Shown: positions 3,813-24,990, counted from the first letter of the stretch. The stretch is 30,253 nucleotides of DNA from an uncultured Spirochaetia bacterium (GCA_937960625.1 CALGPD010000205.1:1-30253); one strand, 5' to 3'. The notes: generated by a model not told the origin, from the letters alone. Program-made: numbers and translations.

Positions 3813-6389
3813 TTAAGCGTATCCTTTTTTCTTTTTAGATGAAACAAGTTTTTCAGCATCTTTTTCCGCTTCTTCTTCTGATGCAAATTCTTTTGTTTTA
3901 CTTTGTCCTTCTGAACCGATCTTTCCATATCTAACCGTATGAGTATTACCCGTTATAGTTATTTCCCAGAATTTATTAGATTTTTCATCTTTATACTCAA
4001 GATATATTTTTTCCCCATCCGATTCACTTTCCTCAGAATCTCCGTCTTCACCGTTTTCAGACATATCCTCTAAGTTTGCTAAAAAATCATCAAAACTATC
4101 ATGCAATTTTTCAGGATTTTCTCCAATTTCATGTTCAAATAAGTAAACGGGATTTAATGTATCCTGAGTGTCAACCGCTAAAAATATTTCAACCATAGTA
4201 TCAATTTCAACATCCTCATAAAAAAGATTAGGAATGGCTAAGATTTTAAAATAATAGTCAGGATTATTTATTAATTGATATAACTCACAACTTTCATAAT
4301 CTTCATCCAAATAATCATCCAGCCACGAATACTGTTCTACATCTTCGAGTAATTCTTCATGAGTACCGAATATTAATGGAAGATCTAAAAAAGTAATTTC
4401 CGTGTCCCGTTTCTCAGTTAATTTTTCATAATATCCGGATTCTATAAACTCGGCATAACTCATTTTCAACTCAACTCCTCCGGATAACCTCTCGTTAATT
4501 GCACTTTCAACTTCATTAATTTTTTTAACGGTCAATCCATCACAATATTCACAATTAAATTCTTCTAAGTTTGGCAATGATTTAAGAACGGATATGTCTT
4601 TCATGTTATCTAAGCTACGGAGTTCTATTTTTTCCAGTTTACTTAATTTAGATAATGACTCAGGTAATTTCTTTAAGTTATCAATATAGTGGATTGATAA
4701 TTCCCGCAAATTACTCAATTCTCCAACAATATCAATATTACCTACTTTCTTCAAGCTCTTTATATGTAATTTTTCCAGATTCTCAAGTGTACCAATATCT
4801 CCGGGTAATTCAGTTAGTTCATCTAAATTTTGAAGAGACAGCTCTTTTAGGTTTGGTAAACCTTTTATACCTGAAATTTGAGGTAAAACTTCTAAAAACT
4901 CAAAAGTTATTTTTTCTAAACCTTTAGCCATTTCAATTTCTACCGGTAATGTTTTTAAATAATCGGAACGGTGTATCTCAAGTTCTTTTAACTTTCCGAG
5001 TTTAACAATATTTGATAAATCCAAAGTTGTTTCGATACTGCCTACACTTAAACTTTCTAGTTTTGGTAAAACAGGCAAAGTAAAAGCAGGCTGATTAACG
5101 GCTAAACTTTTAAGATCAGCATAGTTTTCCAAATATTTATCCGAAGCTTCTATATCGTTAAAGACTGTAAGCTTTTTTAACTTTTTTAATTCTTTTGGTA
5201 ATTCCTTAAACGGACAATCTGCAATATATAGTTCTTCTAGATTAGTTAAAGAAGATAGAAAACTAATGTCTTCACTTTTTGCGCTAAAATCGAGTTTTCT
5301 TAAGTTCGTTAATGAACCCAATGTTTTAGGGAGTTTTTCTACTACGCTGTAAAAAACGAGTTCTTCAAGTTCAGGAAAGTCTTTAACTCCGGAAATATAA
5401 GACAAATTTTTGTTATATCCTACAACGAGTTTTTTTAATCCCTTTAATGTCGAAAAAGAATCATTTATGTTTTTTACATTACAACTTGATAAATCTAATT
5501 CTTCCAGCAATGGCAGTTCTTTTAATTCAGAAATGTCTTCCATTTTTTCATTTTTACTTAAATCCAGTTTTTTTAGATTTTTTAATTTTGAAATACTTTT
5601 AGGAGCAGATGTAAAATAAAAACCACCAATACGGAGTTCTACTAATCCTTCCAAATTACCAACATTTTCTAATACCTGATAGTTATCTCTATTTTTTACC
5701 GTATAACAATATATGGATAAAGATTTTAAGTTTTTAAGATTGAAAATATACTCAGGTATGCCTTCAATTTCATGTGAATCAGTCATATCCAACAATTCAA
5801 GATTATGCATATCCTTTAACACTTCCCAGTCCTTAACTCCAGTGTTATACGCAACGAATAATTTCCGTAATTTAGTAAGTTTCAATAATTCTTTTGGAAT
5901 TTTTTTTAGTTTATTATTACCAACGTATAGTTCTTCCAAATTGGTTAACTTTTTTAAACCCGTTATATTGGTTATCTTATTATCAGAAATACCTAAAATT
6001 TTAAGTTGGCTAAGGGCTAAAATTTCTTCAGGGACTTTTTTTAAGTTCAAATCTTCCAGACCTAAATCTTCCAAAGTGGTTAATTCCGTGAGTATTGAAA
6101 AGTCAGAGATTTCATTACCACCGATAAATAAAGTTTTAATATTTTTCAAACTTAATATTTCTTTGGGTATCTCCTTGATGTCCATTTCTTTTAAATAAAG
6201 TTCTTCAAGCTTCACAAGTTCTTTTAAAAAGGAAAAATCTTTAATATTACAATTCTTTGACAATCTTAAAGATTTTAAATTTGTAAACAATGATATCTCA
6301 TCAATGTTTTCAGCTGTTTCTGCATTAATGCTTTGAATTTCTTCTTTGCTATTCTTTAATAGAGCATCTTGATAGTTAAATTCTTTCAT
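3813..6389 (-). CDS. Large leucine-rich-repeat protein with acidic linker and C-terminal WGR domain
   Basis: 858 aa. There are more than 20 LRR units (LxxLxxLxLxxNxI: ...LKSLRLSKNCNIKDFSFLKELVKLEELYLKEMDIKEIP...). A non-repeat region (about aa 640-780) precedes a D/E-rich stretch. The C-terminal IYLEYKDEKSNKFWEITITGNTHTVRYGKIGSEGQSKTKEFASEEEAEKDAEKLVSSKKKKGYA matches the WGR consensus (FWEI...RYGRIG..GQ...F.S.eeA...KGY). An SD AGGGGAAGAAG precedes the ATG. Confidence 0.8.
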   Translation of the reverse strand: MKEFNYQDALLKNSKEEIQSINAETAENIDEISLFTNLKSLRLSKNCNIKDFSFLKELVKLEELYLKEMDIKEIPKEILSLKNIKTLFIGGNEISDFSILTELTTLEDLGLEDLNLKKVPEEILALSQLKILGISDNKITNITGLKKLTNLEELYVGNNKLKKIPKELLKLTKLRKLFVAYNTGVKDWEVLKDMHNLELLDMTDSHEIEGIPEYIFNLKNLKSLSIYCYTVKNRDNYQVLENVGNLEGLVELRIGGFYFTSAPKSISKLKNLKKLDLSKNEKMEDISELKELPLLEELDLSSCNVKNINDSFSTLKGLKKLVVGYNKNLSYISGVKDFPELEELVFYSVVEKLPKTLGSLTNLRKLDFSAKSEDISFLSSLTNLEELYIADCPFKELPKELKKLKKLTVFNDIEASDKYLENYADLKSLAVNQPAFTLPVLPKLESLSVGSIETTLDLSNIVKLGKLKELEIHRSDYLKTLPVEIEMAKGLEKITFEFLEVLPQISGIKGLPNLKELSLQNLDELTELPGDIGTLENLEKLHIKSLKKVGNIDIVGELSNLRELSIHYIDNLKKLPESLSKLSKLEKIELRSLDNMKDISVLKSLPNLEEFNCEYCDGLTVKKINEVESAINERLSGGVELKMSYAEFIESGYYEKLTEKRDTEITFLDLPLIFGTHEELLEDVEQYSWLDDYLDEDYESCELYQLINNPDYYFKILAIPNLFYEDVEIDTMVEIFLAVDTQDTLNPVYLFEHEIGENPEKLHDSFDDFLANLEDMSENGEDGDSEESESDGEKIYLEYKDEKSNKFWEITITGNTHTVRYGKIGSEGQSKTKEFASEEEAEKDAEKLVSSKKKKGYA

Positions 6390-7809: not shown

Positions 7810-8943
7810 CTATTTAATTTTAATAGCTATAAGATTTACATCATCACTAAATTCATTATCACCGATAAAATCTTTGAGTTCCTGTATTATTTTTTCATTT
7901 ATTTCCTTAGAACTCTTTTCACAATTGTCTTTAAATACTGCTAAAAGTTTTTCATCCCCAAATATCTGAAATGAAGAATCTTCGGCTTCAAATGCTCCGT
8001 CTGTATATAATAATATTTGGTCACCGGGTTTTAAATCCTGCTCTTTAGTTTCAAACACAGCGTTTTCAAAAAGCCCCATTACATAACCCTTGGTCTTAAG
8101 AAAATCAACATTACCGTTTCTGCATAAATATCCTGCCGGATGCCCGGCTGATGCATAAATGATTTTATTCTCTTCTAAATCCAAAATCGTATAAACAGCA
8201 GTTACATAAGTGAATTTTCCGCCTAAAATATTTATCAACTGAAGATTCATCTCGGATAAAAGTTCGGATGGAGTTTTATTTTGTTCAATAAAATTATCAA
8301 GCAAAGTTTTTAAAATCATTGTGATTAAAGCTGCCTGCATTCCATGGCCTACAACATCAGCAACAAAAACACCGAGTTTTTTCTCACTAAAAGGCATGAA
8401 ATAATAAAAATCACCGCCAACCATAAAACACGGTATATATCTGAAATCTATATCAAAACCTTTTGTATCAGGAACATCAGAAGGAAGAATTTTCTCCTGA
8501 ACTTTACTTGCCAGACGGATTTCTTTTTGAAATGCAATATTTTTTACTGCCAATTCATCTGTATAATCTTTTAAGCGTAGAAGAGACCGCACACGTGCAG
8601 TTAATTCAATGTCATTTATAGGCTTGGATAGAAAGTCATCACAACCCGCCTCAAGGCCGTTTACTTTATCTTCTGTGCTGGAAAGTGAAGTAATTAATAC
8701 AACCGGAATGTTCCTCGTTATATCATTATTTTTAATTTTTCTGCAAAGTTCAAAACCGTCAAGTTCAGGCATGATTACATCTGAAATTATCATATCCGGT
8801 TTTTGTTTTTTAACTAATTCCAAAGCTTCTAAACCGTTATACGCACAGGAAACCTCATAACCTTCTTTGCCTAGACGCATTCTTAATAGGTCAACATTTA
8901 CTTTTATGTCATCTACAACGAGTATTTTATGTTTCTTTTCCAT
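7810..8943 (-). CDS. Response-regulator receiver fused to PP2C (SpoIIE/RsbU-type) serine phosphatase
   Basis: Canonical REC (KILVVDD...MIISDVIMPELDG...VVLITS...SKPI). PP2C motifs follow: FYYFMP...LGVFVADVVGHGMQAALITM...YASAGHP...ILLYTDG. I chose the ATG at 8943; the ORF track begins at a TTG at 8964. No SD precedes either start. Confidence 0.8.
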   Translation of the reverse strand: MEKKHKILVVDDIKVNVDLLRMRLGKEGYEVSCAYNGLEALELVKKQKPDMIISDVIMPELDGFELCRKIKNNDITRNIPVVLITSLSSTEDKVNGLEAGCDDFLSKPINDIELTARVRSLLRLKDYTDELAVKNIAFQKEIRLASKVQEKILPSDVPDTKGFDIDFRYIPCFMVGGDFYYFMPFSEKKLGVFVADVVGHGMQAALITMILKTLLDNFIEQNKTPSELLSEMNLQLINILGGKFTYVTAVYTILDLEENKIIYASAGHPAGYLCRNGNVDFLKTKGYVMGLFENAVFETKEQDLKPGDQILLYTDGAFEAEDSSFQIFGDEKLLAVFKDNCEKSSKEINEKIIQELKDFIGDNEFSDDVNLIAIKIK

Positions 8944-9001
8944 TATATATAATAACAAACGCAAATTATTAAAATTGTCAAGAATATTTATTAAAATAGC
9001 G

Positions 9002-13470: not shown

Positions 13471-13974
13471 ATGCAAATGGATTACAGATACATTAACCCG
13501 TTTATTACTTCAGCAATTTCAATAATTAGAGAAACCACCGGAGTAAATGTAAGGAGAAAACGCGTTTATTTACACAAAGGCAAAGAGTCCATCGGCGGTG
13601 TTGGTATTACACTTGGTTTATCAGGTGATATAAAAGGCCGCGTTGTATATGAATTTTCACGGGGCATGACAATGAGGCTGGCATCCAGAATGTTAAGGCA
13701 ATCCGAGATTAATTTTAAAGACAAACAAGAGTTTATTACTCTGCTTGAATCCGCAATTCTTGAACTCGGCAACCTTATTTCAGGTAAAGCAATCGGAGTT
13801 TTACTAAACAACGGCTATAACTGCAACATTACACCACCGGATTTCTGGTACGGCAAAGACGTTTCTTTAATTCCGTTTTATTTATTAACAATAGTAATTG
13901 AATTATCCACACCGTACGGAGATTTCGCCATTAACTTATCTATTCAGCAGAAAAAAGAAGTACTCGTAGCGTAG
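13471..13974 (+). CDS. CheX-like protein (CheC/CheX/FliY phosphatase family), orphan
   Basis: The N-terminal INPFITSAISIIRETTG and later EFITLLESAILELGNLISGKA fit the CheX fold signature. A strong RBS AAGAGGAAAAAATTATG is present. No other che genes are in the window. Confidence 0.55.
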   Translation: MQMDYRYINPFITSAISIIRETTGVNVRRKRVYLHKGKESIGGVGITLGLSGDIKGRVVYEFSRGMTMRLASRMLRQSEINFKDKQEFITLLESAILELGNLISGKAIGVLLNNGYNCNITPPDFWYGKDVSLIPFYLLTIVIELSTPYGDFAINLSIQQKKEVLVA

Positions 13975-15974: not shown

Positions 15975-17348
15975 TTAGAAATGAAAAATTCCGCCTGCAT
16001 GCCAGATAAATCCGCTCTCCAATGCCATGCCGAAAACGTATCCGTTGGTTTTATAACCGATTCGTCCGGTTAAACGGAATAGATGAGATATCATAACGGT
16101 AATATCCAGATAGCCTGCGATTCCGAAATATAAATCGGTTTTCGCGGGATTTGAAACATAGTCATGAACTATTTCAGGCTGCATAAACACATGTAACGCC
16201 CCGCCGAAAAATAAATTTTGAACAATTTCAATACCCTTGAACTTTACACCGGCTCCCCACGCGGAAACGAACTCTCCCGTTGTCATACGGAAATATGGGA
16301 TAAATAAAAGCCTTTTATCAAACTTTATAAATATATCCACATACCATTCAACTCCATAAGGAGCAAGAGATATTCTCCCGGAAGGCAATATATCGGCTTT
16401 ACCCACGGGTATCATTATAGTTTTCATAATCTTTTTACCCGTTATTTGAGAATAAAAATGGGATGCCGCGGCAAAAAACAACAGCGGGTCAGCTAATATC
16501 AGCCATTTATAATTCTGAAGTTTATCAAGAGTGAGTTTGTATTTCGATGATGTTGAATATCCGTATTTCTGATTTACTAAATTAATGTAAGCCGCAATAT
16601 CGTTTCCGTCTGATGAATTAATATCTTCGGTGTAATGAATGTAATAAAACAAATCAAGCCTGGTTAATAGATACGTTGTAAAATCATGCGGCGCAATGTA
16701 TCCGTCCTGCACCCATCTCATGGCTACAATATGCGACATTAACATATTGGCTTCATAACCCCCGCTGATAATCATTAAATTATGGTCTGTGCTGGATACA
16801 CCGTGATATTCCATATATCCTCCGCCACCCCCAAAAGGAAACGGCCAGTTAATTTTAACTTTGTCAACAGTTCCACCGGCTTCTCTTACTCTAACAGCAT
16901 GGCCGAAGAACTCGTGATTAAAAGTAACAGCAGCATGGATAATTGGTAAATCAACAATTATTGATTTGGCAAAATAAGTTATAACCTGAATTAAAGGGCT
17001 TGAATTTTTATGCATAAAACTAATGGGATAATTCGTTCCTTTTACAAAAGCCATTGCGGCAGATTCCATGGTTATTGCAGCAGGATAAGTACTGTAGATA
17101 GAATAGTTAAACACAAACATAAAGTCCCTTTTAGGAAATCCGTCAAAACTCGTTTCTTTTTCGCCTCTTCCTATATCGTCAACATCGGGTATCATTTGTA
17201 TTTTAGTACGTTCTTTATATCCGCCTTCAGTGCGTACTTGTGAACGGTCACCCATTAACGGGTTATCATTATCTTCGCCCGCAAATAAAAGGTTTATAGA
17301 AAAAATTGTTATTAATAAAGCAGTAATAAATAACTTTGAATATTTCAC
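15975..17348 (-). CDS. Secreted / probable outer-membrane protein of unknown function (signal peptide, C-terminal aromatic residue)
   Basis: N-terminal signal peptide MKYSKLFITALLITIFSINLLFAGED. An internal FNHEFFGHAVR (HExxxH) and a glycine cluster PFGGGGGY are present. The C-terminus ...GGIFHF ends in Phe, as in beta-barrel OMPs. It sits 15 nt upstream of nadC, co-oriented. Confidence 0.55.
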   Translation of the reverse strand: MKYSKLFITALLITIFSINLLFAGEDNDNPLMGDRSQVRTEGGYKERTKIQMIPDVDDIGRGEKETSFDGFPKRDFMFVFNYSIYSTYPAAITMESAAMAFVKGTNYPISFMHKNSSPLIQVITYFAKSIIVDLPIIHAAVTFNHEFFGHAVRVREAGGTVDKVKINWPFPFGGGGGYMEYHGVSSTDHNLMIISGGYEANMLMSHIVAMRWVQDGYIAPHDFTTYLLTRLDLFYYIHYTEDINSSDGNDIAAYINLVNQKYGYSTSSKYKLTLDKLQNYKWLILADPLLFFAAASHFYSQITGKKIMKTIMIPVGKADILPSGRISLAPYGVEWYVDIFIKFDKRLLFIPYFRMTTGEFVSAWGAGVKFKGIEIVQNLFFGGALHVFMQPEIVHDYVSNPAKTDLYFGIAGYLDITVMISHLFRLTGRIGYKTNGYVFGMALESGFIWHAGGIFHF

Positions 17349-18385: not shown

Positions 18386-18523
18386 GTTTTCCCTATTACT
18401 TTTGCGGCAACTGTTAATTCTGCATAATATAATAAAAATCAATATTATTTTGAATTTTTATTAGAAATAAAAGTTTTTCATATTATAATTACCACGGTTA
18501 AATTATTTATTCATGGAAAGCCA

Positions 18524-18787
18524 ATGGAAAACGTTATTTTATCAACCGGAGACATTAAAAAAGACTATGAAATTATTGATGTAATTTTTGCTCAGGCAGG
18601 CATACACAATCCTTATTTTGCCGGGCCTCAGTATAATGAATCATTTGACGAATTAAAGAAGATATTAAAGCAAAAATGCGCGGAAATTGGCGGAAATGCG
18701 GTTATTAATGTACGGTTTGAGTATCAGCACACTAAGAATAATATTCACGAGTTATTTTCTTATGGAACATGCGTAAAGTTTAAGTAG
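18524..18787 (+). CDS. YbjQ/UPF0145 (DUF74) family small protein
   Basis: 87 aa: ILSTGDIKKDYEIIDVIFAQ...CAEIGGNAVINVRFEY. This is like the YbjQ pattern (I.TT..I.G..I...G.V.....GANAVIGV). Confidence 0.5.
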   Translation: MENVILSTGDIKKDYEIIDVIFAQAGIHNPYFAGPQYNESFDELKKILKQKCAEIGGNAVINVRFEYQHTKNNIHELFSYGTCVKFK

Positions 18788-18974
18788 CAGAATTGACTTA
18801 TTTAAGCATTTCCCTTTTTATATTTTTTCTAAAAAAACGACAAAAAATGCTATTCTCCTAATTTAAAATGTATAAATTTATCTATTATTTTTTGAGGAAA
18901 AACATTCTTTTTAGTTAATAAAAGAATTGAAAAAAGAATTGAATTCAAATAGTCATTATAAAAATAAAAACCTG

Positions 18975-20087
18975 ATGCTATTAAGCATATCCAATTTTTT
19001 ATTCTACTCTTCTACAGGGCTTTTCTTTTTTCTCCCTGTATATATTTCAGAGCTTAAAGTCTCAAAGTTATATCTCGGTTTTATTATGGGTATGCCTTCA
19101 ATAATTCAAGTAGCATTTGGTTTCCAAATCAGAAACAAAATCGATTTCATTAATAAAAAAACCGGGTTACTCGTTACAAGTATTATTTCAATAGCCGTAT
19201 GTATTGCGTATTTTTTTCTTAATAATATTTTTATAATTCCGGTAATCAGGTTTTTCCACAGCCTTGTATTAAGCGTTGGAATATTATTCGGAACAGCGCT
19301 TGCCATTGATTTAATTCCCGTTGAAAAAAGAAAATCAGGCATAGGCCTTTATTCTTTAACCGGAGCATTGCCCTTTTTATTTGCCCCTATGACAGCCGAA
19401 ATAATAATCAAACATTTTGATTTTAAGTACGTTTTTATCCTAGCTGCTATTATCTCATTATTGCGATTTATTATAACATTAACCGTAAAAACAAACGGCA
19501 ATTCAGCGTCAATAAAAAAACAGGATGAAAACACAAAAATATCAAAATATTACAGCCTTATTCCTTTTGTTATCTTTTACGGAGCTTTATATGCAGCGCT
19601 GTATAAATTTTTAAGTGTATACACTATTCAGCTAAAAATAATATATATATCTATATTTTTTCAAGTGAGGGTAATTTTTACTTTTCTGTCAAGAATTGTT
19701 TCACAAAGCAAACTGGATAAATGGAAAAATATCTCAATACTTTCAACGAGTTTTATAAGTTCATTTGCCGTTTTATTTCTCGGATTTATATTAAAATTTA
19801 AACCAAGCGTTTATATTCTCGCTATTATGGGAGCAATATATGGAAGCGTTCATGGAATTCTTTATCCGGCTTTAAACGTTTTATTTATAAATATAACGCC
19901 CACAAGAACGGGAAAAGCTACAATTTATTTTATATTAATTAAAAATATAGGAATTGCAGTGTTTGCCTTATTATGCGGATTAATTGCAGATTATACCGGA
20001 TATAATATAATGTATTTAATCATGGCAATATTAATGCTTATTCCGGTTTTATACGGTGTATTTATTAGGAAAAGATTGGAAATATAA
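18975..20087 (+). CDS. MFS-type transporter
   Basis: About 12 hydrophobic segments. I chose the ATG at 18975 (MLLSISNFLFYSS...) because the ORF track starts at an upstream TTG at 18927. No SD is present. Confidence 0.65.
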   Translation: MLLSISNFLFYSSTGLFFFLPVYISELKVSKLYLGFIMGMPSIIQVAFGFQIRNKIDFINKKTGLLVTSIISIAVCIAYFFLNNIFIIPVIRFFHSLVLSVGILFGTALAIDLIPVEKRKSGIGLYSLTGALPFLFAPMTAEIIIKHFDFKYVFILAAIISLLRFIITLTVKTNGNSASIKKQDENTKISKYYSLIPFVIFYGALYAALYKFLSVYTIQLKIIYISIFFQVRVIFTFLSRIVSQSKLDKWKNISILSTSFISSFAVLFLGFILKFKPSVYILAIMGAIYGSVHGILYPALNVLFINITPTRTGKATIYFILIKNIGIAVFALLCGLIADYTGYNIMYLIMAILMLIPVLYGVFIRKRLEI

Positions 20088-20129
20088 AAACTATATCTTA
20101 TTTTAAAATTTCCTATTTAGGAGGAAAAA

Positions 20130-21179
20130 ATGAATATTTGTTTTATAATAAATGATTGGAAAACAGTGGAAACTAAAACAGAAACCACTATCAGGCTAAT
20201 ACATGAAAGCGCAATAAGAAATCATAATGTAGGAATTCTTTACACACAAAATCTAACTATTAGAAATAACGTTGCTTATGGTTTTGTTAAAACCATAAAA
20301 AAAATGGATAAGGTTCCTGACAATATAGAATCTTTTTATAAAAAAGCTGAGTTAATTGAAAAGATGTTACCCATGAACGGTTTTGATGCTATTTTCATCC
20401 GTAAAAATCCGCCTGTGGATAACATTATGCTTAATTTTCTTGATTCAATAAGAGATGAGACATTCTTAATCAATGATATTCACGGTATCAGAAAAGCAAA
20501 TAATAAATTATACACAGCGCTTTTTCACGACCCAAAAAATGAATTTCTTCCTGTTACCCATGTTTCCAAAAACATTAAATATCTCAAAAAAACTATTGAA
20601 GAATCAAATAATGAAAAAATGATATTAAAACCTCTAAATGCTTACGGCGGCAGCGGGGTTATCGTACTTGAAAAAAACGCAAAACACAATATCAACTCCC
20701 TTCTTGAATTTTACATTGAAGGCAAAGAACAAAAAAATTACGTTATAGTTCAAGAATATGTTGAAGGCGCGGAAAAAGGAGATATACGCGTTCTAATGTT
20801 AAACGGTCAGCCCGTAGGAGCGTATAAACGGGTACCCGCGGCTGACGATATAAGGGCAAATATTCATGCAGGCGGAAAGGCTGAAAAACATAAACTCACG
20901 GAAAAAGAAAAAATGATTTGTAAAAAAATAGGCCCGCAGCTTGTTTCTGACGGGATATTCTTTGCCGGTATAGATATTATCAATAATAAACTCATTGAAG
21001 TTAACGTATTATCTCCGGGCGGTATTGCAAACGTAAACAGGCTGAATAAAACCAAAGTCCAAAAAAAAGTAATTGATTTCATTGAAGACATGATTGCAAA
21101 GAGAAATGATATTATTAATCAGCGCCAGGCAGCAATCGAAAGAAAGAAATTATTTAATTCGGAGTTTAATAGTGATTAA
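20130..21179 (+). CDS. ATP-grasp amidoligase of the glutathione synthetase (GshB)/RimK clade
   Basis: A strong RBS AGGAGGAAAAAATG is present. The protein is colinear with E. coli GshB in both the N-terminal substrate domain (FIRKNPP, NNKLYTALF) and the ATP-grasp domain (ILKPLNAYGGSGV, GDIRVLMLNGQPVGAYKRVPAADDIRANIHAGGKAEKHKLTEKEKMICKKIGPQLVSDGIFFAGIDII..EVNVLSPGG). Confidence 0.85.
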   Translation: MNICFIINDWKTVETKTETTIRLIHESAIRNHNVGILYTQNLTIRNNVAYGFVKTIKKMDKVPDNIESFYKKAELIEKMLPMNGFDAIFIRKNPPVDNIMLNFLDSIRDETFLINDIHGIRKANNKLYTALFHDPKNEFLPVTHVSKNIKYLKKTIEESNNEKMILKPLNAYGGSGVIVLEKNAKHNINSLLEFYIEGKEQKNYVIVQEYVEGAEKGDIRVLMLNGQPVGAYKRVPAADDIRANIHAGGKAEKHKLTEKEKMICKKIGPQLVSDGIFFAGIDIINNKLIEVNVLSPGGIANVNRLNKTKVQKKVIDFIEDMIAKRNDIINQRQAAIERKKLFNSEFNSD

Positions 21180-21216
21180 ACTTTCTATAGAGGAAATAGT
21201 TGAAAAAATCAATAAC

Positions 21217-23163
21217 ATGGAGGCTTTTTCAGCAATCTCGGGCAATGATGAATTTAGTATTACTATAGAAAAATACGTTCCGTTTGTATGCGCGGCCATA
21301 CATAACGGCGGCAATTTTCTTAAACAGGTTTCAGATAAACTGCATATTTCCAAGTTTGAAAGATGGAACGAAGAAGATCCATTAACAGGGTCTTTTATAT
21401 TACCTTTTCCAATTAGAATCATAGTTTATGATTCACGCTATGAATATGATTTAAACAGAAATCCGGAAAATTGTATATATGAATACGCATGGAATAAACA
21501 GGTTTATGAAACGCCTTTAACCCAAGAGGAAAAAAAAATCTTTTTAACAAGGCATGAAAACTTTTATAAAGTTATTAACGCGTTAATATCAAAGCTTGAA
21601 AAATTATTCAAAGCATGTGTCGTATTCGATATTCATTCATACAATCATCAAAGGTTTGGAGAAAAGCGGGACCTTCCTTTGTTTAATCTTGGAACGGAAA
21701 AAGTTAATACAAAAAAATTCGGCAAATATATCAACTATATTACTGAACAACTTTTAAAAATAAAAATTGAAGGTGTAGTAAATAGAGTCGCGATAAATGA
21801 AGTCTTTTTCGGCAGAGGATATTTTCTAGAATATATAACGAAAAATTTTAAAAACACTCTTGTATTGGCTACAGAAATTAAAAAAGTGTATGTGGATGAA
21901 AATACCGGAGATGAGTTTCCAGGGATTATTGAAGATTTAAAAAACGGGCTCAAAGAAACCGTTTTAAATACCTCAAACTTTTTCATTAATGATACTACAA
22001 CGTTAAACGTTAAACAAAAATATAATCTATTAGGAGAAACTTTTACAGACGGGATAAATTTAGTTGATAATCAATTACACAAACTTGTTTCCAAAATCGA
22101 TTTCTTAACCTATATTAATCCGGTAAATATTGAAACGGAAAAATCTAAATTCATAAAATCAAAATATAAAAAAACTCCAGTATTCAGATATAAACACCTT
22201 ACTAAGGATATTTATTTTCTGAAAAAAAACTTATATTCAATCCCTATAGACAAAATAAAAGACGCAACCATAAAATCGTTTTATACAGAAGTGATTGAAA
22301 AACAAAGTATTGTATCTGATTTGTTATTAAATAGAGGAAATCACACATTTTTATATAATTCCCTTAGAAATTATGGTGAACCGTCTAAAACAGATATTGA
22401 AAATGCGCGGTTTTTAATTTCCGCTGTTGATAACGCTAACAACGCGAAAACATTTACCGCGGACGAGGCATTTACTATTTTCAAGGAACACGTTGACAGG
22501 TTAAACATTAAGTGCAAAGTTGAAGTCAGCTCAAAAATTGTGTCAAAGGTTATGATGGTTAAAAATACGGTGCTAAGAATACGTAAAAACAGCGTGTTTA
22601 CTGAAAACGAAATCATAGCGCTTGTAAATCATGAAATCGGCGTACATTTATTTACAACGCTAAATTCTAAAAGAAACCGGTTAAAAGTATTGCGTTTCTC
22701 TTTGCCCGGCGCAACGGAAACACAGGAAGGCCTTGCAATTTTAAGTGAAATGTTAAGCGGAAATATGACTGTAAAAAGATTGAAGGAACTGGCTTACAGA
22801 ACCATTCTAATTAAAAAAATGCTGAACGGAATCTCTTTTAACGAAGCTTTTCTATACCTAAAAGAAGAACACGGTTTTGAGGATGACAACGCGTTTTACC
22901 TTACAACTCGAGTATTCAGAAGCGGAGGGCTTACAAAAGACCGGCTGTATTTAAGCGGATTTAAGAAAATGTATGATTATTATAAACAAGGCAGGGACCT
23001 ATCAATATTATATACGGGAAAAACTTCCGAAAGATATAGGGACATTTTATTTGAATTACAGGCTAGAGGGTTAATCGATAAACCCAAATACATTAATCCA
23101 TGCTTTAGCAAACCGGAAAAAATAGACCCTGTAATTGAGTTTATAGCGGATTCGCTTAAATAA
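21217..23163 (+). CDS. Fusion protein: N-formylglutamate amidohydrolase (FGase)-like domain + DUF1704 / MATCAP-like metallopeptidase domain (QEGLA motif)
   Basis: N-terminal about 280 aa: VPFVCAAIHNGGNF...VVFDIHSYNHQRF is FGase-like. C-terminal about 380 aa carries VNHEIGVHLFTT (HExxxH), PGATETQEGLAILSE (QEGLA) and SGGLTKDRLYLSGF. The ORF is open from 21094, overlapping the ATP-grasp gene by 86 nt. The first ATG after the upstream stop is 21217. Confidence 0.75.
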   Translation: MEAFSAISGNDEFSITIEKYVPFVCAAIHNGGNFLKQVSDKLHISKFERWNEEDPLTGSFILPFPIRIIVYDSRYEYDLNRNPENCIYEYAWNKQVYETPLTQEEKKIFLTRHENFYKVINALISKLEKLFKACVVFDIHSYNHQRFGEKRDLPLFNLGTEKVNTKKFGKYINYITEQLLKIKIEGVVNRVAINEVFFGRGYFLEYITKNFKNTLVLATEIKKVYVDENTGDEFPGIIEDLKNGLKETVLNTSNFFINDTTTLNVKQKYNLLGETFTDGINLVDNQLHKLVSKIDFLTYINPVNIETEKSKFIKSKYKKTPVFRYKHLTKDIYFLKKNLYSIPIDKIKDATIKSFYTEVIEKQSIVSDLLLNRGNHTFLYNSLRNYGEPSKTDIENARFLISAVDNANNAKTFTADEAFTIFKEHVDRLNIKCKVEVSSKIVSKVMMVKNTVLRIRKNSVFTENEIIALVNHEIGVHLFTTLNSKRNRLKVLRFSLPGATETQEGLAILSEMLSGNMTVKRLKELAYRTILIKKMLNGISFNEAFLYLKEEHGFEDDNAFYLTTRVFRSGGLTKDRLYLSGFKKMYDYYKQGRDLSILYTGKTSERYRDILFELQARGLIDKPKYINPCFSKPEKIDPVIEFIADSLK

Positions 23164-23206: not shown

Positions 23207-24990
23207 CTAATTCTCTAAAGGCAAGGCAAACCAAAAATCACTGCCCTTGCTTGGTGAACTCTCAACTCCTATACTTCCATTATGAAATTCCACTATTTTT
23301 ATGCAAATGGATAATCCAAGCCAGGAGCCTTTTTCCCGTTTCAATCCTTTTATTCTTGCTTTTGTAAAAGGCTCAAATATTAATTTATGGTTTTGTTCTT
23401 CAATTCCAATTCCGTTATCTACAACGTGGGTAATTATCTCGTTATTTTGCAGATAACTTTGTATTTTAATTTCACAGTGTTCAGGCGTAAATTTAATAGC
23501 ATTGGTAATAAAATTGCTCAATACGCTGTAAACTTTCTCTTTGTCTATTTCAATAAGTATCAACAATTTCTCCGATAACAAGGTTTATATTTTTCGTTTT
23601 GCAGATAATATTAAACGTTGTAACCGCATCGGAAATTAAATCCGATAATTTTACGCTATTTACATCGAGTTTAACTTTGCCTGAATCAAACAAAGCAATA
23701 TTGAGAAAATCATTTGCCATTTTTAAAATAGTCTGCGAGTTTTTATTTATAATCTCAAGATAGGATTTAATATTTTCAGGAAGATTATTTTTTAAAAGTA
23801 TTTTCGATGTGCCCAAAATAGAACCAAAACCGTTTTTATGTCATGGTTTACCATGGCAACGAAGTTATCTTTAATATTGGAAAGCTTTCTTAATTCCGTT
23901 ATATCCCTGCCCACAATCTGGATTTCCTTAATATTACCCGTTTCATCGAATATTCCACGGGCAACCCAATGAATCCAGCGCAAACCCTTATCAGGCAGAA
24001 ATAATTTATAAGTATTTGAAGAGCTATTATGGCTTGCTAATATTTTGCTAATTCTTTCTTTGATTGTAGCCAAATCAGAATCATCTATAAAACCATATTC
24101 AAAAAGGCTGTTTAGATTCATTTTAAGGAGTTGTTGTTCATTAATCCCCGCGCATTCACAAAATACGTTATTTACATAAACAATATTTAAATAAGGGTCA
24201 AATCTTACTATCAGGTCGTTCATTTCAGATACAACGCTTTTATACCGCTACTCGCTTTGTTTTAGCTGCTCTTCGAGTTTTTTCTTCTCTGTAATATCAC
24301 GGGCGATTATTATACTATAAGGATTAGAATTTAAATAGGCAGCACGCATTTTTATATCCCATAAAAACTTTTTACCTGATTTTGATTGATACCAATATTC
24401 AAATCTAACCCTTCCGTCATTCTTGACAAACTCATCAAATACCTGTTTCAATTTTTTATGAGCATCTTCATCAGGGAAATATGAGATATCATTCATAGAC
24501 ATACCAATAAGTTCATCTTTAGAATATTCTAATTTCTTACAAGCTTCTTCATTTGCATCATAAATTATGCCTCTAGCAGAAATTATGATTATATCATTAC
24601 GATGGTTGAAAAAGCTTCATAATTCTGAGACCTTAATTTATCATATCTTATATCAAGCAATGAAAAAATTACAACTATTTTCAAATTATCGTTTTAGTTA
24701 TTAAAAATATTCAAACTATAAGATACATCTATAATTTCATTGGTTTTATTGATTAGACATGATTTCCAACTTGCTAAATTTTTCTTTTCTGCTTTTTTAA
24801 ATCTGATAATTTGATTTTCAATTGATAATTGGCAAATTGATACTTTTGCTTCTAAATCTGAAATCGATTTTCCATACAAATCATTTAAATCATATTTAAA
24901 AGTCTCTAAAAAAAGTTTATTCGCGTATTCAATATTGTAATCTTTATCAAGCTACAATAATAAAACGGGTGAGTTTTCAACTATTTCTTT
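23207..24990 (-). pseudogene. Decayed multi-PAS sensor histidine kinase (HisKA + HATPase_c), disrupted by 2 in-frame TAG codons and at least 3 frameshifts
   Basis: Collinear minus-strand fragments run from PAS (INLVVDYKEIVENSPVLLL*LDKDYNIEYAN...) through PAS (DIIIISARGIIYDANEEACKKLEYSKDELIGMSMNDISYF...), a linker KLEEQLKQSE*RYKSVVSEMNDLIV, a third PAS (GLRWIHWVARGIFDETGNIKEIQIVGRDITE), H-box FVAMVNHDIKT, and the C-terminal part of the HisKA domain. The HATPase N/G boxes follow (NFITNAIKFT, VVDNGIGIE, GSWLGLSI). In-frame TAGs are at 24248-24250 and 24953-24955. Frame changes occur near 23565-23580, 23800-23812 (in an A5 run) and about 24560-24600. Confidence 0.75.

Follow-up and report, generated by a model that had tools for sequence, protein, structure and literature searches.

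The DNA analyzed here, a 30,253-nucleotide (nt) stretch from an uncultured Spirochaetia bacterium (GCA_937960625.1, CALGPD010000205.1:1-30253; the window, at its full length), carries two overlapping genes on its plus strand. The first (positions 20130 to 21179) encodes a 349-amino-acid (aa) ATP-grasp ligase that resembles the glutathione synthetase GshB, and the second (positions 21172 to 23163) encodes a 663-aa fusion of an N-terminal amidohydrolase-like domain, similar to N-formylglutamate amidohydrolase (FGase), and a C-terminal metallocarboxypeptidase-like domain of the DUF1704 or QEGLA family, to which the microtubule-associated tyrosine carboxypeptidase (MATCAP) is related. Judged from sequence, the pair is a conserved two-gene module whose three predicted activities are translated together. 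The kinds of enzyme are familiar (an ATP-grasp ligase, an M14-like amidohydrolase, and a MATCAP-type gluzincin) and stand in a conserved arrangement that has no characterized counterpart.

Gene junction and start of the fusion gene

A Shine-Dalgarno sequence read from the DNA, GGAGG (20120 to 20124, plus strand), lies 5 nt before the ATG of the ligase gene. At the junction of the two genes (21161 to 21179, plus strand), which has the form of a translational coupling site, GGAG (21161 to 21164) stands 7 nt 5' of a GTG codon (21172 to 21174), and the ligase gene ends with TAA at 21177 to 21179, giving an overlap of 8 nt (GTGATTAA). The fusion reading frame is open from a TTG at 21094, and an ATG occurs at 21217; the initial annotation had offered these as the two possible starts, the former with an 86-nt overlap, and both are probably wrong. 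Four lines of evidence make GTG 21172 the most likely start. The database protein is 663 aa long, which corresponds to this codon; the Shine-Dalgarno spacing fits; the N-terminal 15 residues are conserved among homologs (consensus MxxLSxxEIIxxI, with I13 in at least 90%); and gene calling gave the same 8-nt overlap at eight loci of other lineages (L054 to L058, L064, L066, and L067), comprising Fusobacteriota, Chlamydiales, a "Cyanobacteriota" metagenome-assembled genome (MAG), Clostridium, Flammeovirgaceae, and two further contigs. TTG 21094 and ATG 21217 were rejected on the same grounds.

The ligase

The ligase matched Pfam and NCBIfam models and Escherichia coli GshB (1gsa; E = 2.5e-34, approximately 30% identity). 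It consists of a substrate-binding pre-ATP-grasp domain, GSH-S_N (aa 1 to 121, nt 20130 to 20492; PF02951, E = 1.5e-18), and an ATP-grasp domain (aa 125 to 306, nt 20502 to 21047; PF02955 GSH-S_ATP, E = 3.6e-56). Alignment with E. coli GshB located the flexible loop of the ATP-grasp domain, KRVPAADDIRANIHAGGK, at nt 20826 to 20879 and the Mg2+-binding motif D282/E290/N292 at nt 20967 to 21023, all on the plus strand, and indicated that two loops of GshB, the small glycine-rich one and the large flexible one, are preserved. The E. coli residues R86, K125, K160, Q198, D208, R210, R225, R233, N235, D273, E281, and N283, which we take to be the catalytic ones, are all kept, and R241 is replaced by lysine. 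The segment after the Mg2+-binding motif is altered from TSPTCIREIE in E. coli to LSPGGIANVN, where at least 90% of sequences have G297, and the ligase has a C-terminal extension of approximately 25 to 30 aa relative to E. coli GshB.

Among family models, the best match was to the "glutathione synthetase" NF009110/PRK12458 (407.7 bits; cutoff, 408; positions 1 to 343 of 349); module-linked relatives of the ligase scored 448 to 481 bits, and every module-linked ligase tested belonged to this subfamily and fell below the cutoff of the equivalog model TIGR01380. The window ligase likewise failed TIGR01380 (237.3 bits; cutoff, 299.05) but exceeded the cutoff of the "glutathione synthase" equivalog NF003573/PRK05246 (285.1 bits; cutoff, 272). 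Because it keeps all of the GshB residues checked and passes the latter model, a substrate resembling glutathione (GSH) is possible. Models of the RimK family matched more weakly (PF08443, E = 2.3e-23; TIGR00768, 97.8 bits, below the cutoff of 143.4; NF007764, 58.3 bits, below the cutoff of 331), and the TTL domain (PF03133) gave no match to the ligase even at E values up to 10.

The fused hydrolase domains

The FGase-like domain, with an M14-like fold, spans approximately aa 1 to 275 (nt 21172 to 21996, plus strand; PF05013, E = 7.5e-11), and Foldseek matched it to the FGase-family structures 2q7s (E = 2.7e-9) and 2odf. Its candidate metal-binding or catalytic residues, whose roles are suggested by the fold, are H44 in the segment AIHNG (nt 21295 to 21309, plus strand), D153 and H155 in the segment DIHS (nt 21628 to 21639, plus strand), E68, D87/S88/R89, E235, and E243. 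Among 58 diverse full-length fusion homologs, S88 was invariant, and the others were conserved to a high degree (H44 and E68, 57/58; D153, 56/58; E243, 55/58; H155, 52/58; E235, 49/58). The domain and fold are shared with N-formylglutamate amidohydrolases, at an identity of only 14 to 18%. It is far from the HutG-type enzymes, scoring 16.8 bits against the equivalog TIGR02017 (cutoff, 278.75), and there is no histidine-utilization context, with no hut genes in the window. In contrast to those amidohydrolases, the FGase domain of this type is always paired or fused with a MATCAP-like domain, except at the FGase-only locus L063.

The MATCAP-like domain (aa 326 to 660, nt 22147 to 23151, plus strand) matched PF08014, formerly DUF1704, with an E value of 3.3e-92 (309.7 bits; cutoff, 27) and passed TIGR02421 "QEGLA" (348.7 bits; cutoff, 338.65). 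Two motifs can be read on the plus strand: VNHEIGVH (aa 485 to 492, nt 22624 to 22647), which contains HEIGVH (nt 22630 to 22647), and TETQEGLAILSE (aa 515 to 526, nt 22714 to 22749), which contains TQEGLA (nt 22720 to 22737). In a profile comparison with human MATCAP (7z5g; E = 6.4e-19), HEIGxH and T(E/Q)EGLA were aligned with the human HEIGTH and TEEGLA, and the (E/Q)EGLA motif would supply the third metal ligand. The HExxxH residues were nearly invariant among the 58 homologs (H487 and H492, 56/58; E488, 57/58), and E519 of QEGLA, E526, R536, R543, R580, R583, K589, and Y593 were present in all of them. The window protein carries every conserved residue listed here for either hydrolase domain. 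An AlphaFold2 (AF2) model of the fusion (mean predicted local distance difference test score, 94.2; predicted template modeling score, 0.89) matched MATCAP and FGase structures first, followed by M14 and M32 carboxypeptidases, succinylglutamate desuccinylase, PghP, YndL, and CphZ. PghP and YndL are poly-gamma-glutamate hydrolases and CphZ is a cyanophycin dipeptidase; these next-ranking matches cut C-terminal or N-acyl amides of Glu or Asp.

Much of the initial annotation is borne out by these data. The colinearity of the first gene with GshB over both domains, the identification of the second as an FGase-DUF1704 fusion bearing the two motifs, and the homology of its DUF1704 domain to MATCAP were all recovered with profiles, and the homology also at the level of fold. 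That annotation had also asked whether each hydrolase domain retains a metal site; conserved candidate catalytic and metal-binding residues are present in both, and hence the fusion protein does not look catalytically dead.

Distribution of the module

The pair is found in at least five bacterial phyla. We retrieved 751 fusion homologs from a collection of proteins clustered at 90% identity; among the matches listed (120 of the 751), nearly all were 650 to 685 aa long, with two shorter or longer, and had both domains, and the named sources were Bacteroidota, Fusobacteriota, Chlamydiales, Clostridia, a "Cyanobacteriota" MAG, and Nitrosomonadales. When the MATCAP-like half was used in a full HMMER scan, 2,079 protein clusters (50% identity) were obtained at E ≤ 0.001, and the MATCAP-like proteins fell into three length classes: the fusion of approximately 660 aa, a stand-alone form of approximately 380 aa, and a long form of approximately 610 to 650 aa. 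Of 53 genome loci, 52 had a PRK12458-type ligase homolog within a few kilobases of the FGase and MATCAP genes, and the remaining one ended at a contig edge. These loci came mostly from low-GC Flavobacteriaceae, reflecting a bias of the search pattern toward low GC, which was offset by looking up members of other phyla one by one. Every other context fetched from the fusion side (Fusobacteriota, Chlamydiales, Clostridium, Bacteroidota, and Gamma- and Alphaproteobacteria) also had the ligase gene beside the fused or split genes. The ligase itself is 57 to 67% identical across phyla.

The gene architecture varied. The FGase and MATCAP halves were separate adjoining genes in 43 loci, and thus the three activities travel together whatever the arrangement of the genes. 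The architecture on a Photobacterium chromid is the fused one of the window, whereas Mesorhizobium, Sinorhizobium meliloti pSymB, and Pricia have a permuted, unfused triad in the order FGase, long-form QEGLA, ligase. In Vibrionaceae and rhizobia, the module is carried on secondary replicons (chromosome II, the Photobacterium chromid, pSymB, and a Mesorhizobium plasmid). Because the flanking genes vary among lineages, the unit consists of the ligase and the two hydrolase domains. Conservation of the pair across genomes, which had been proposed as a check, was therefore evident in several phyla, in fused or split form. These data make it unlikely that the window holds an ordinary gshB beside an unrelated gene; rather, its pair is a typical member of a widespread and already annotated gene pair whose annotation is probably incorrect.

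Two variants of the arrangement were observed. At L063 (7001 to 8909), a 63%-identical ligase gene overlaps a gene that encodes FGase alone (290 aa), and no MATCAP-like gene is close by, showing that the FGase half can partner the ligase without the MATCAP half; downstream are genes for a DksA-like zinc finger protein and a Cys/Met-metabolism pyridoxal phosphate (PLP) enzyme. The long-form QEGLA proteins of Pricia and rhizobia (607 to 628 aa; L036, 2998 to 4821; L060, 6311 to 8164; L059, 6284 to 8170) have an N-terminal extension of approximately 250 aa that no Pfam model matched; it shows weak colinearity with the fusion's FGase domain (E = 0.04 to 0.1), with segments such as IEKLLPYIC against IEKYVPFVC and VLLDIGE against VVFDIHS. 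The extension may be a degenerate FGase-like domain devoid of the histidine, and an intact FGase is encoded separately, immediately 5' of the long-form genes.

Several other descriptions of the locus were examined. The GC content of the module (approximately 31%) is no different from that of the rest of the window, and a foreign-island signature was rejected. An anti-phage defense system was likewise rejected, as PADLOC models gave no match to the ligase, the fusion, or the adjacent transporter. No conserved small open reading frame (ORF) that could encode a substrate peptide accompanies the module. A 110-aa protein was considered as a co-encoded substrate and discarded: it was confined to 12 Flavobacteriaceae loci and matched no Pfam model.

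Genomic context and the question of glutathione synthesis

In the Flavobacteriaceae, the module is often part of a longer operon with the order SDF symporter, ligase, rhodanese, 110-aa protein, FGase, and MATCAP-like gene; the GltP-like SDF symporter was found in 34 loci, the 110-aa protein, which has no assigned function, in the 12 mentioned above, and the rhodanese, a tandem protein similar to 3-mercaptopyruvate sulfurtransferase, in 24. One operon includes a gene for an AIG2/ChaC-like gamma-glutamyl cyclotransferase, and a redoxin gene adjoins a distant QEGLA gene. MscS channel genes occur downstream of the module in Clostridium (78 nt) and in Flammeovirgaceae (1.8 kb) (L058 and L064), a gene for a TrkA-gated K+ channel follows it at L067, and a lone ligase gene at L065 comes directly after KefB-like and Flavodoxin_2 genes, a pair that presumably resembles the glutathione-gated Kef system. 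Taken together, these neighbors and the MFS transporter genes beside the module in the window and at L054 point to small-molecule chemistry, whether of amino acids or of thiol peptides, and to some connection with ion or osmotic homeostasis.

Two further clusters were seen near PRK12458-type ligases. In two unrelated MAGs (L057, 1606 to 6943; L062, 1013 to 4802), the ligase gene lies beside a cluster that encodes a KamA-like radical-SAM protein similar to lysine 2,3-aminomutase, Ddl-like ATP-grasp proteins similar to D-Ala-D-Ala ligase (in one case as a fusion with Peptidase_S58), and either a deacetylase or a GNAT protein; the cluster resembles a pathway for a beta-amino-acid peptide or osmolyte. 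In L062 (8537 to 13271), genes for a seven-transmembrane transglutaminase, an ATPgrasp_ST ligase related to RimK, and a 740-aa protein that faintly matched Peptidase_C25 come after a lone PRK12458-type ligase, so that the neighborhood holds a second ATP-grasp/peptidase system.

The thiol-related neighbors (the rhodanese, the ChaC-like protein, the Cys/Met PLP enzyme, the KefB-like and Flavodoxin_2 pair, and the redoxin) raise the possibility that the ligase is a genuine synthetase of glutathione or of a glutathione analogue, with the hydrolase supplying the dipeptide from imported or conjugated thiol peptides or degrading glutathione conjugates. Passage of the NF003573 cutoff and retention of R86, Q198, R210, R225, R233, N235, and N283 of E. 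coli GshB agree with this explanation, but the failure of TIGR01380 and the altered segment after the Mg2+-binding motif do not. Nor was a gshA-type domain seen in window ORFs of at least 150 aa or in the fetched neighborhoods of other loci, as the initial annotation had said of the vicinity of the pair. The location on secondary replicons in Vibrionaceae and rhizobia and the presence of the module in Clostridium, Chlamydiales, Fusobacteriota, and Bacteroidota, among them lineages that are not known to make GSH, also count against it.

Published data bear on the same point. A mutant of S. meliloti 2011 in the chromosomal gshB (SMc00419), gshB::pSUP202, contained no GSH by high-performance liquid chromatography (PMC7063052). 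Strains 1021 and 2011 both carry the triad on pSymB, 99.9% identical to the locus that we analyzed, and the lack of GSH in the mutant despite this paralog indicates that the PRK12458-type enzyme gives no glutathione synthetase activity under those conditions. In Vibrio vulnificus, the COG3930 gene VV2_1203 adjoins the "glutathione synthetase" gene VV2_1204, and the pair is listed among clade 2-specific genes (PMC3091676). The subfamily and the TIGR01380 result, the host lineages, the S. meliloti mutant, and the clade specificity in V. vulnificus together argue against plain GSH synthesis, which is probably not the role of the module, and we consider a genuine GSH or GSH-analogue synthetase unlikely. 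The earlier view that the pair does not serve ordinary glutathione synthesis is thus strengthened by the subfamily, the TIGR01380 failure, the lineages, and S. meliloti, and weakened by the conserved GshB residues and the PRK05246 score.

Expression data also hint at a link to osmolarity. In Photobacterium damselae grown at 1% versus 3% NaCl, the "GshB" gene RS17020 was upregulated 38.4-fold and the adjoining QEGLA gene RS17025 27.5-fold, and the authors ranked GshB among the functions most upregulated at low salinity (PMC10308900). The module could then be an osmotically controlled glutamate sink, in which the ligase condenses glutamate, or glutamate and an abundant amino acid, into less osmotically active oligopeptides at low osmolarity and the hydrolases release it again. 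The 27- to 38-fold induction fits this idea, as do the MscS or K+ channel genes at most 2 kb from the module in 3 of approximately 10 non-Flavobacteriaceae contexts, the KefB-like gene beside the lone ligase, the GltP-like transporter in 34 loci, the poly-glutamate hydrolases among the structural neighbors, and the deglutamylase activity of the eukaryotic MATCAP relatives, the TMCP enzymes. However, this support is circumstantial and drawn from small samples, the SDF linkage possibly reflects family-level synteny only, and GshB-type enzymes add a single residue and do not polymerize; we regard a glutamate sink as quite improbable.

Pseudomonas aeruginosa PA3697 is presumably a QEGLA-family member and probably the source of the name "flavohemoglobin expression-modulating" protein. 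A passage in one report cites PA3697 as affecting flavohemoglobin (fhp) expression (PMC8070244), a point that we weighed on the side of the GSH explanation.

Other features of the window

A major facilitator superfamily (MFS) transporter gene (18927 to 20087, plus strand; Pfam MFS_1, E = 7e-30) ends 42 nt upstream of the ligase gene and is possibly co-transcribed with the module, as no terminator-like site was found on the plus strand between the two. An MFS gene adjoins the module in Fusobacteriota (L054) too, on the opposite strand, and in none of the 53 genome loci; it is not a conserved partner. A small YbjQ_1 ("putative heavy-metal-binding") gene (18524 to 18787, plus strand) lies ahead of the transporter gene and the module, in their orientation, and is itself preceded by the region's best promoter-like site (18462 to 18489), in a promoter and terminator scan whose site counts were at the level of shuffled sequence. 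The YbjQ_1, MFS, ligase, and fusion genes may form one transcript.

Immediately downstream of the fusion gene and convergent with it, the minus strand (23207 to 24502) holds ORFs of 84, 143, 88, and 124 aa in different frames that together resemble one histidine kinase, with PAS domains in the 84- and 143-aa ORFs and HATPase_c in the 124-aa ORF; this split kinase is either a frameshifted pseudogene or the product of assembly errors. A 457-aa ORF (15975 to 17348, minus strand) without a Pfam match has a signal peptide-like N terminus, a C terminus of the outer membrane beta-barrel type (GGIFHF), and an internal FNHEFFGH, which has the same unusual HExxxH spacing as MATCAP; it may be an uncharacterized surface metalloprotease. 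The window also encodes a large leucine-rich-repeat protein with a C-terminal WGR domain (3813 to 6389, minus strand), a response regulator-SpoIIE phosphatase (7810 to 8964, minus strand), and CheX (13471 to 13974, plus strand); together with the GC content of approximately 31%, these genes suggest a host that is spirochaete-like or similar.

Discussion

The reading that we favor, with a probability of roughly 0.4, is that the ligase and the hydrolases set up a make-and-break cycle for a small acidic peptide of a glutamyl or glutathione-like kind. The module would be a self-contained, horizontally mobile unit in which translation of the ligase is coupled to that of a cytoplasmic metallo-amidohydrolase with two domains. 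The ligase would use ATP to activate the C-terminal carboxylate of the peptide and would add one amino acid; its substrate would be of the glutamyl or gamma-glutamyl type, similar to glutathione but probably not glutathione itself. The MATCAP-like domain would take off the C-terminal residue of such a peptide, and the FGase-like domain would then cut the remaining N-acyl-amino-acid amide, of the X-Glu type, so that ligase and hydrolases together would determine the level of the peptide. Judging from the context, the cycle may be linked to the homeostasis of K+/glutamate or of thiols during osmotic downshift.

An analogy for such a cycle is glutathionylspermidine synthetase/amidase, in which an ATP-dependent amide ligase and a reversing hydrolase adjust how much of a small thiol peptide is present. 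There, a CHAP cysteine amidase is fused to the ligase itself, whereas the module has two metallohydrolase domains on a separate, translationally coupled polypeptide. The ligase shares with E. coli GshB the GSH-S_N and ATP-grasp architecture, the checked residues, and the flexible loop, and differs in its PRK12458 membership, its failure of TIGR01380, its C-terminal extension and altered post-Mg2+ segment, its coupling to two hydrolase domains without gshA nearby, and the fact that the S. meliloti member does not replace gshB.

A number of observations weigh against the peptide cycle. Viewed from the ligase, the linkage is loose: in four contexts found through homologs 58 to 66% identical to the window ligase, the full fusion was present in one, the FGase half alone in another, and neither in the remaining two (the lone ligases of L062 and L065). 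The tight coupling claimed in the initial annotation therefore stood on the fusion side, in 52 of 53 loci and several phyla, but not on the ligase side, where two of four homologs were alone. Such lone ligases mean that the hydrolases may be accessories to the ligase product and not an obligate eraser, and they may feed the ligase or serve another pathway instead of reversing its reaction. If the ligase were coexpressed with enzymes that hydrolyze its product, ATP would also be wasted unless one activity is regulated, and no regulator is evident. The contextual clues are heterogeneous and come from few samples, with the rhodanese, the SDF symporter, and the channels diverging toward thiols, glutamate, and K+, respectively, and the synteny of accessory genes within one family could be explained by shared ancestry. 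The S. meliloti paralog is only 29% identical to the window ligase and may not be expressed in culture. Our literature search on bacterial QEGLA, DUF1704, and PRK12458 proteins returned gene lists only and no functional study. Finally, the characterized enzymes of the MATCAP family act on protein tails and not on small peptides.

The main rival of the peptide cycle is reversible tailing of a protein C terminus, in which the ligase adds glutamate or another residue to a conserved protein, in the manner of RimK with ribosomal protein S6 or TTL/TTLL with tubulin, and the MATCAP-like and FGase-like domains trim it. RimK/RimB and LysX/LysK are precedents in which a ligase and a peptidase act on a protein C terminus, and as in the window, an ATP-grasp ligase and a peptidase are encoded together; the RimK domain model, moreover, matches the window ligase. 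The ligase subfamily and the peptidase families are different ones, however, and no target similar to S6 or LysW is encoded near the window module. TMCP1 (MATCAP) and TMCP2, both metallocarboxypeptidases, take Tyr or Glu off the C terminus of protein tails and shorten polyglutamate chains (PMC10499314). The bacterial domain retains HExxxH and the glutamate of QEGLA, and five basic residues found in 58/58 homologs would suit an acidic tail. The window protein differs from TMCP1 and TMCP2 (KIAA0895L and KIAA0895) in being bacterial, cytoplasmic, and fused to an FGase domain, with no tubulin substrate and an identity of approximately 21 to 23%. The ligase also matched RimK-family models (PF08443, TIGR00768), and its conservation across phyla (57 to 67% identity) would fit a universally conserved target. 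Nevertheless, the ligase is far nearer to GshB than to RimK (408 and 285 versus 98 bits), keeps the small-substrate domain GSH-S_N, and has no specific similarity to TTL, the ligase that opposes MATCAP in eukaryotes. A candidate target gene accompanies the module in none of approximately 70 loci, transporter genes often adjoin it, and the FGase family and neighboring folds act mostly on small N-acyl amino acids. The module is also present in a Chlamydiales MAG; chlamydiae are not known to have FtsZ, which would exclude this tubulin homolog as a universal target. On balance, we see protein tailing as possible but on the unlikely side.

A bolder version of the tailing idea would make the ligase and hydrolase a bacterial writer and eraser of protein C-terminal residues, induced by osmotic downshift, that is a counterpart and possible antecedent of the tubulin tyrosination/glutamylation cycle. 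We find it doubtful; the close ligase homologs without peptidases (L062 and L065) weaken a strict writer/eraser picture.

The peptide cycle and its alternatives have consequences beyond the window. If the "glutathione synthetase" label is wrong, GSH biosynthesis has been overpredicted in Bacteroidota, Clostridia, Fusobacteriota, and Chlamydiales as well as on vibrio and rhizobial secondary replicons. Among bacteria, the MATCAP fold is found mainly in this module, whose substrate would reveal the role of the family before its recruitment to tubulin. The strong induction at low salinity in Photobacterium means that the module may be an unrecognized part of osmotic, K+, or thiol homeostasis. With only two genes, whose products are predicted to be cytoplasmic, it is amenable to study in genetically tractable hosts (S. 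meliloti, Vibrio, Photobacterium, and Tenacibaculum). Overall, two questions become directly testable: the function of the MATCAP fold in bacteria and whether the PRK12458 "glutathione synthases" make glutathione.

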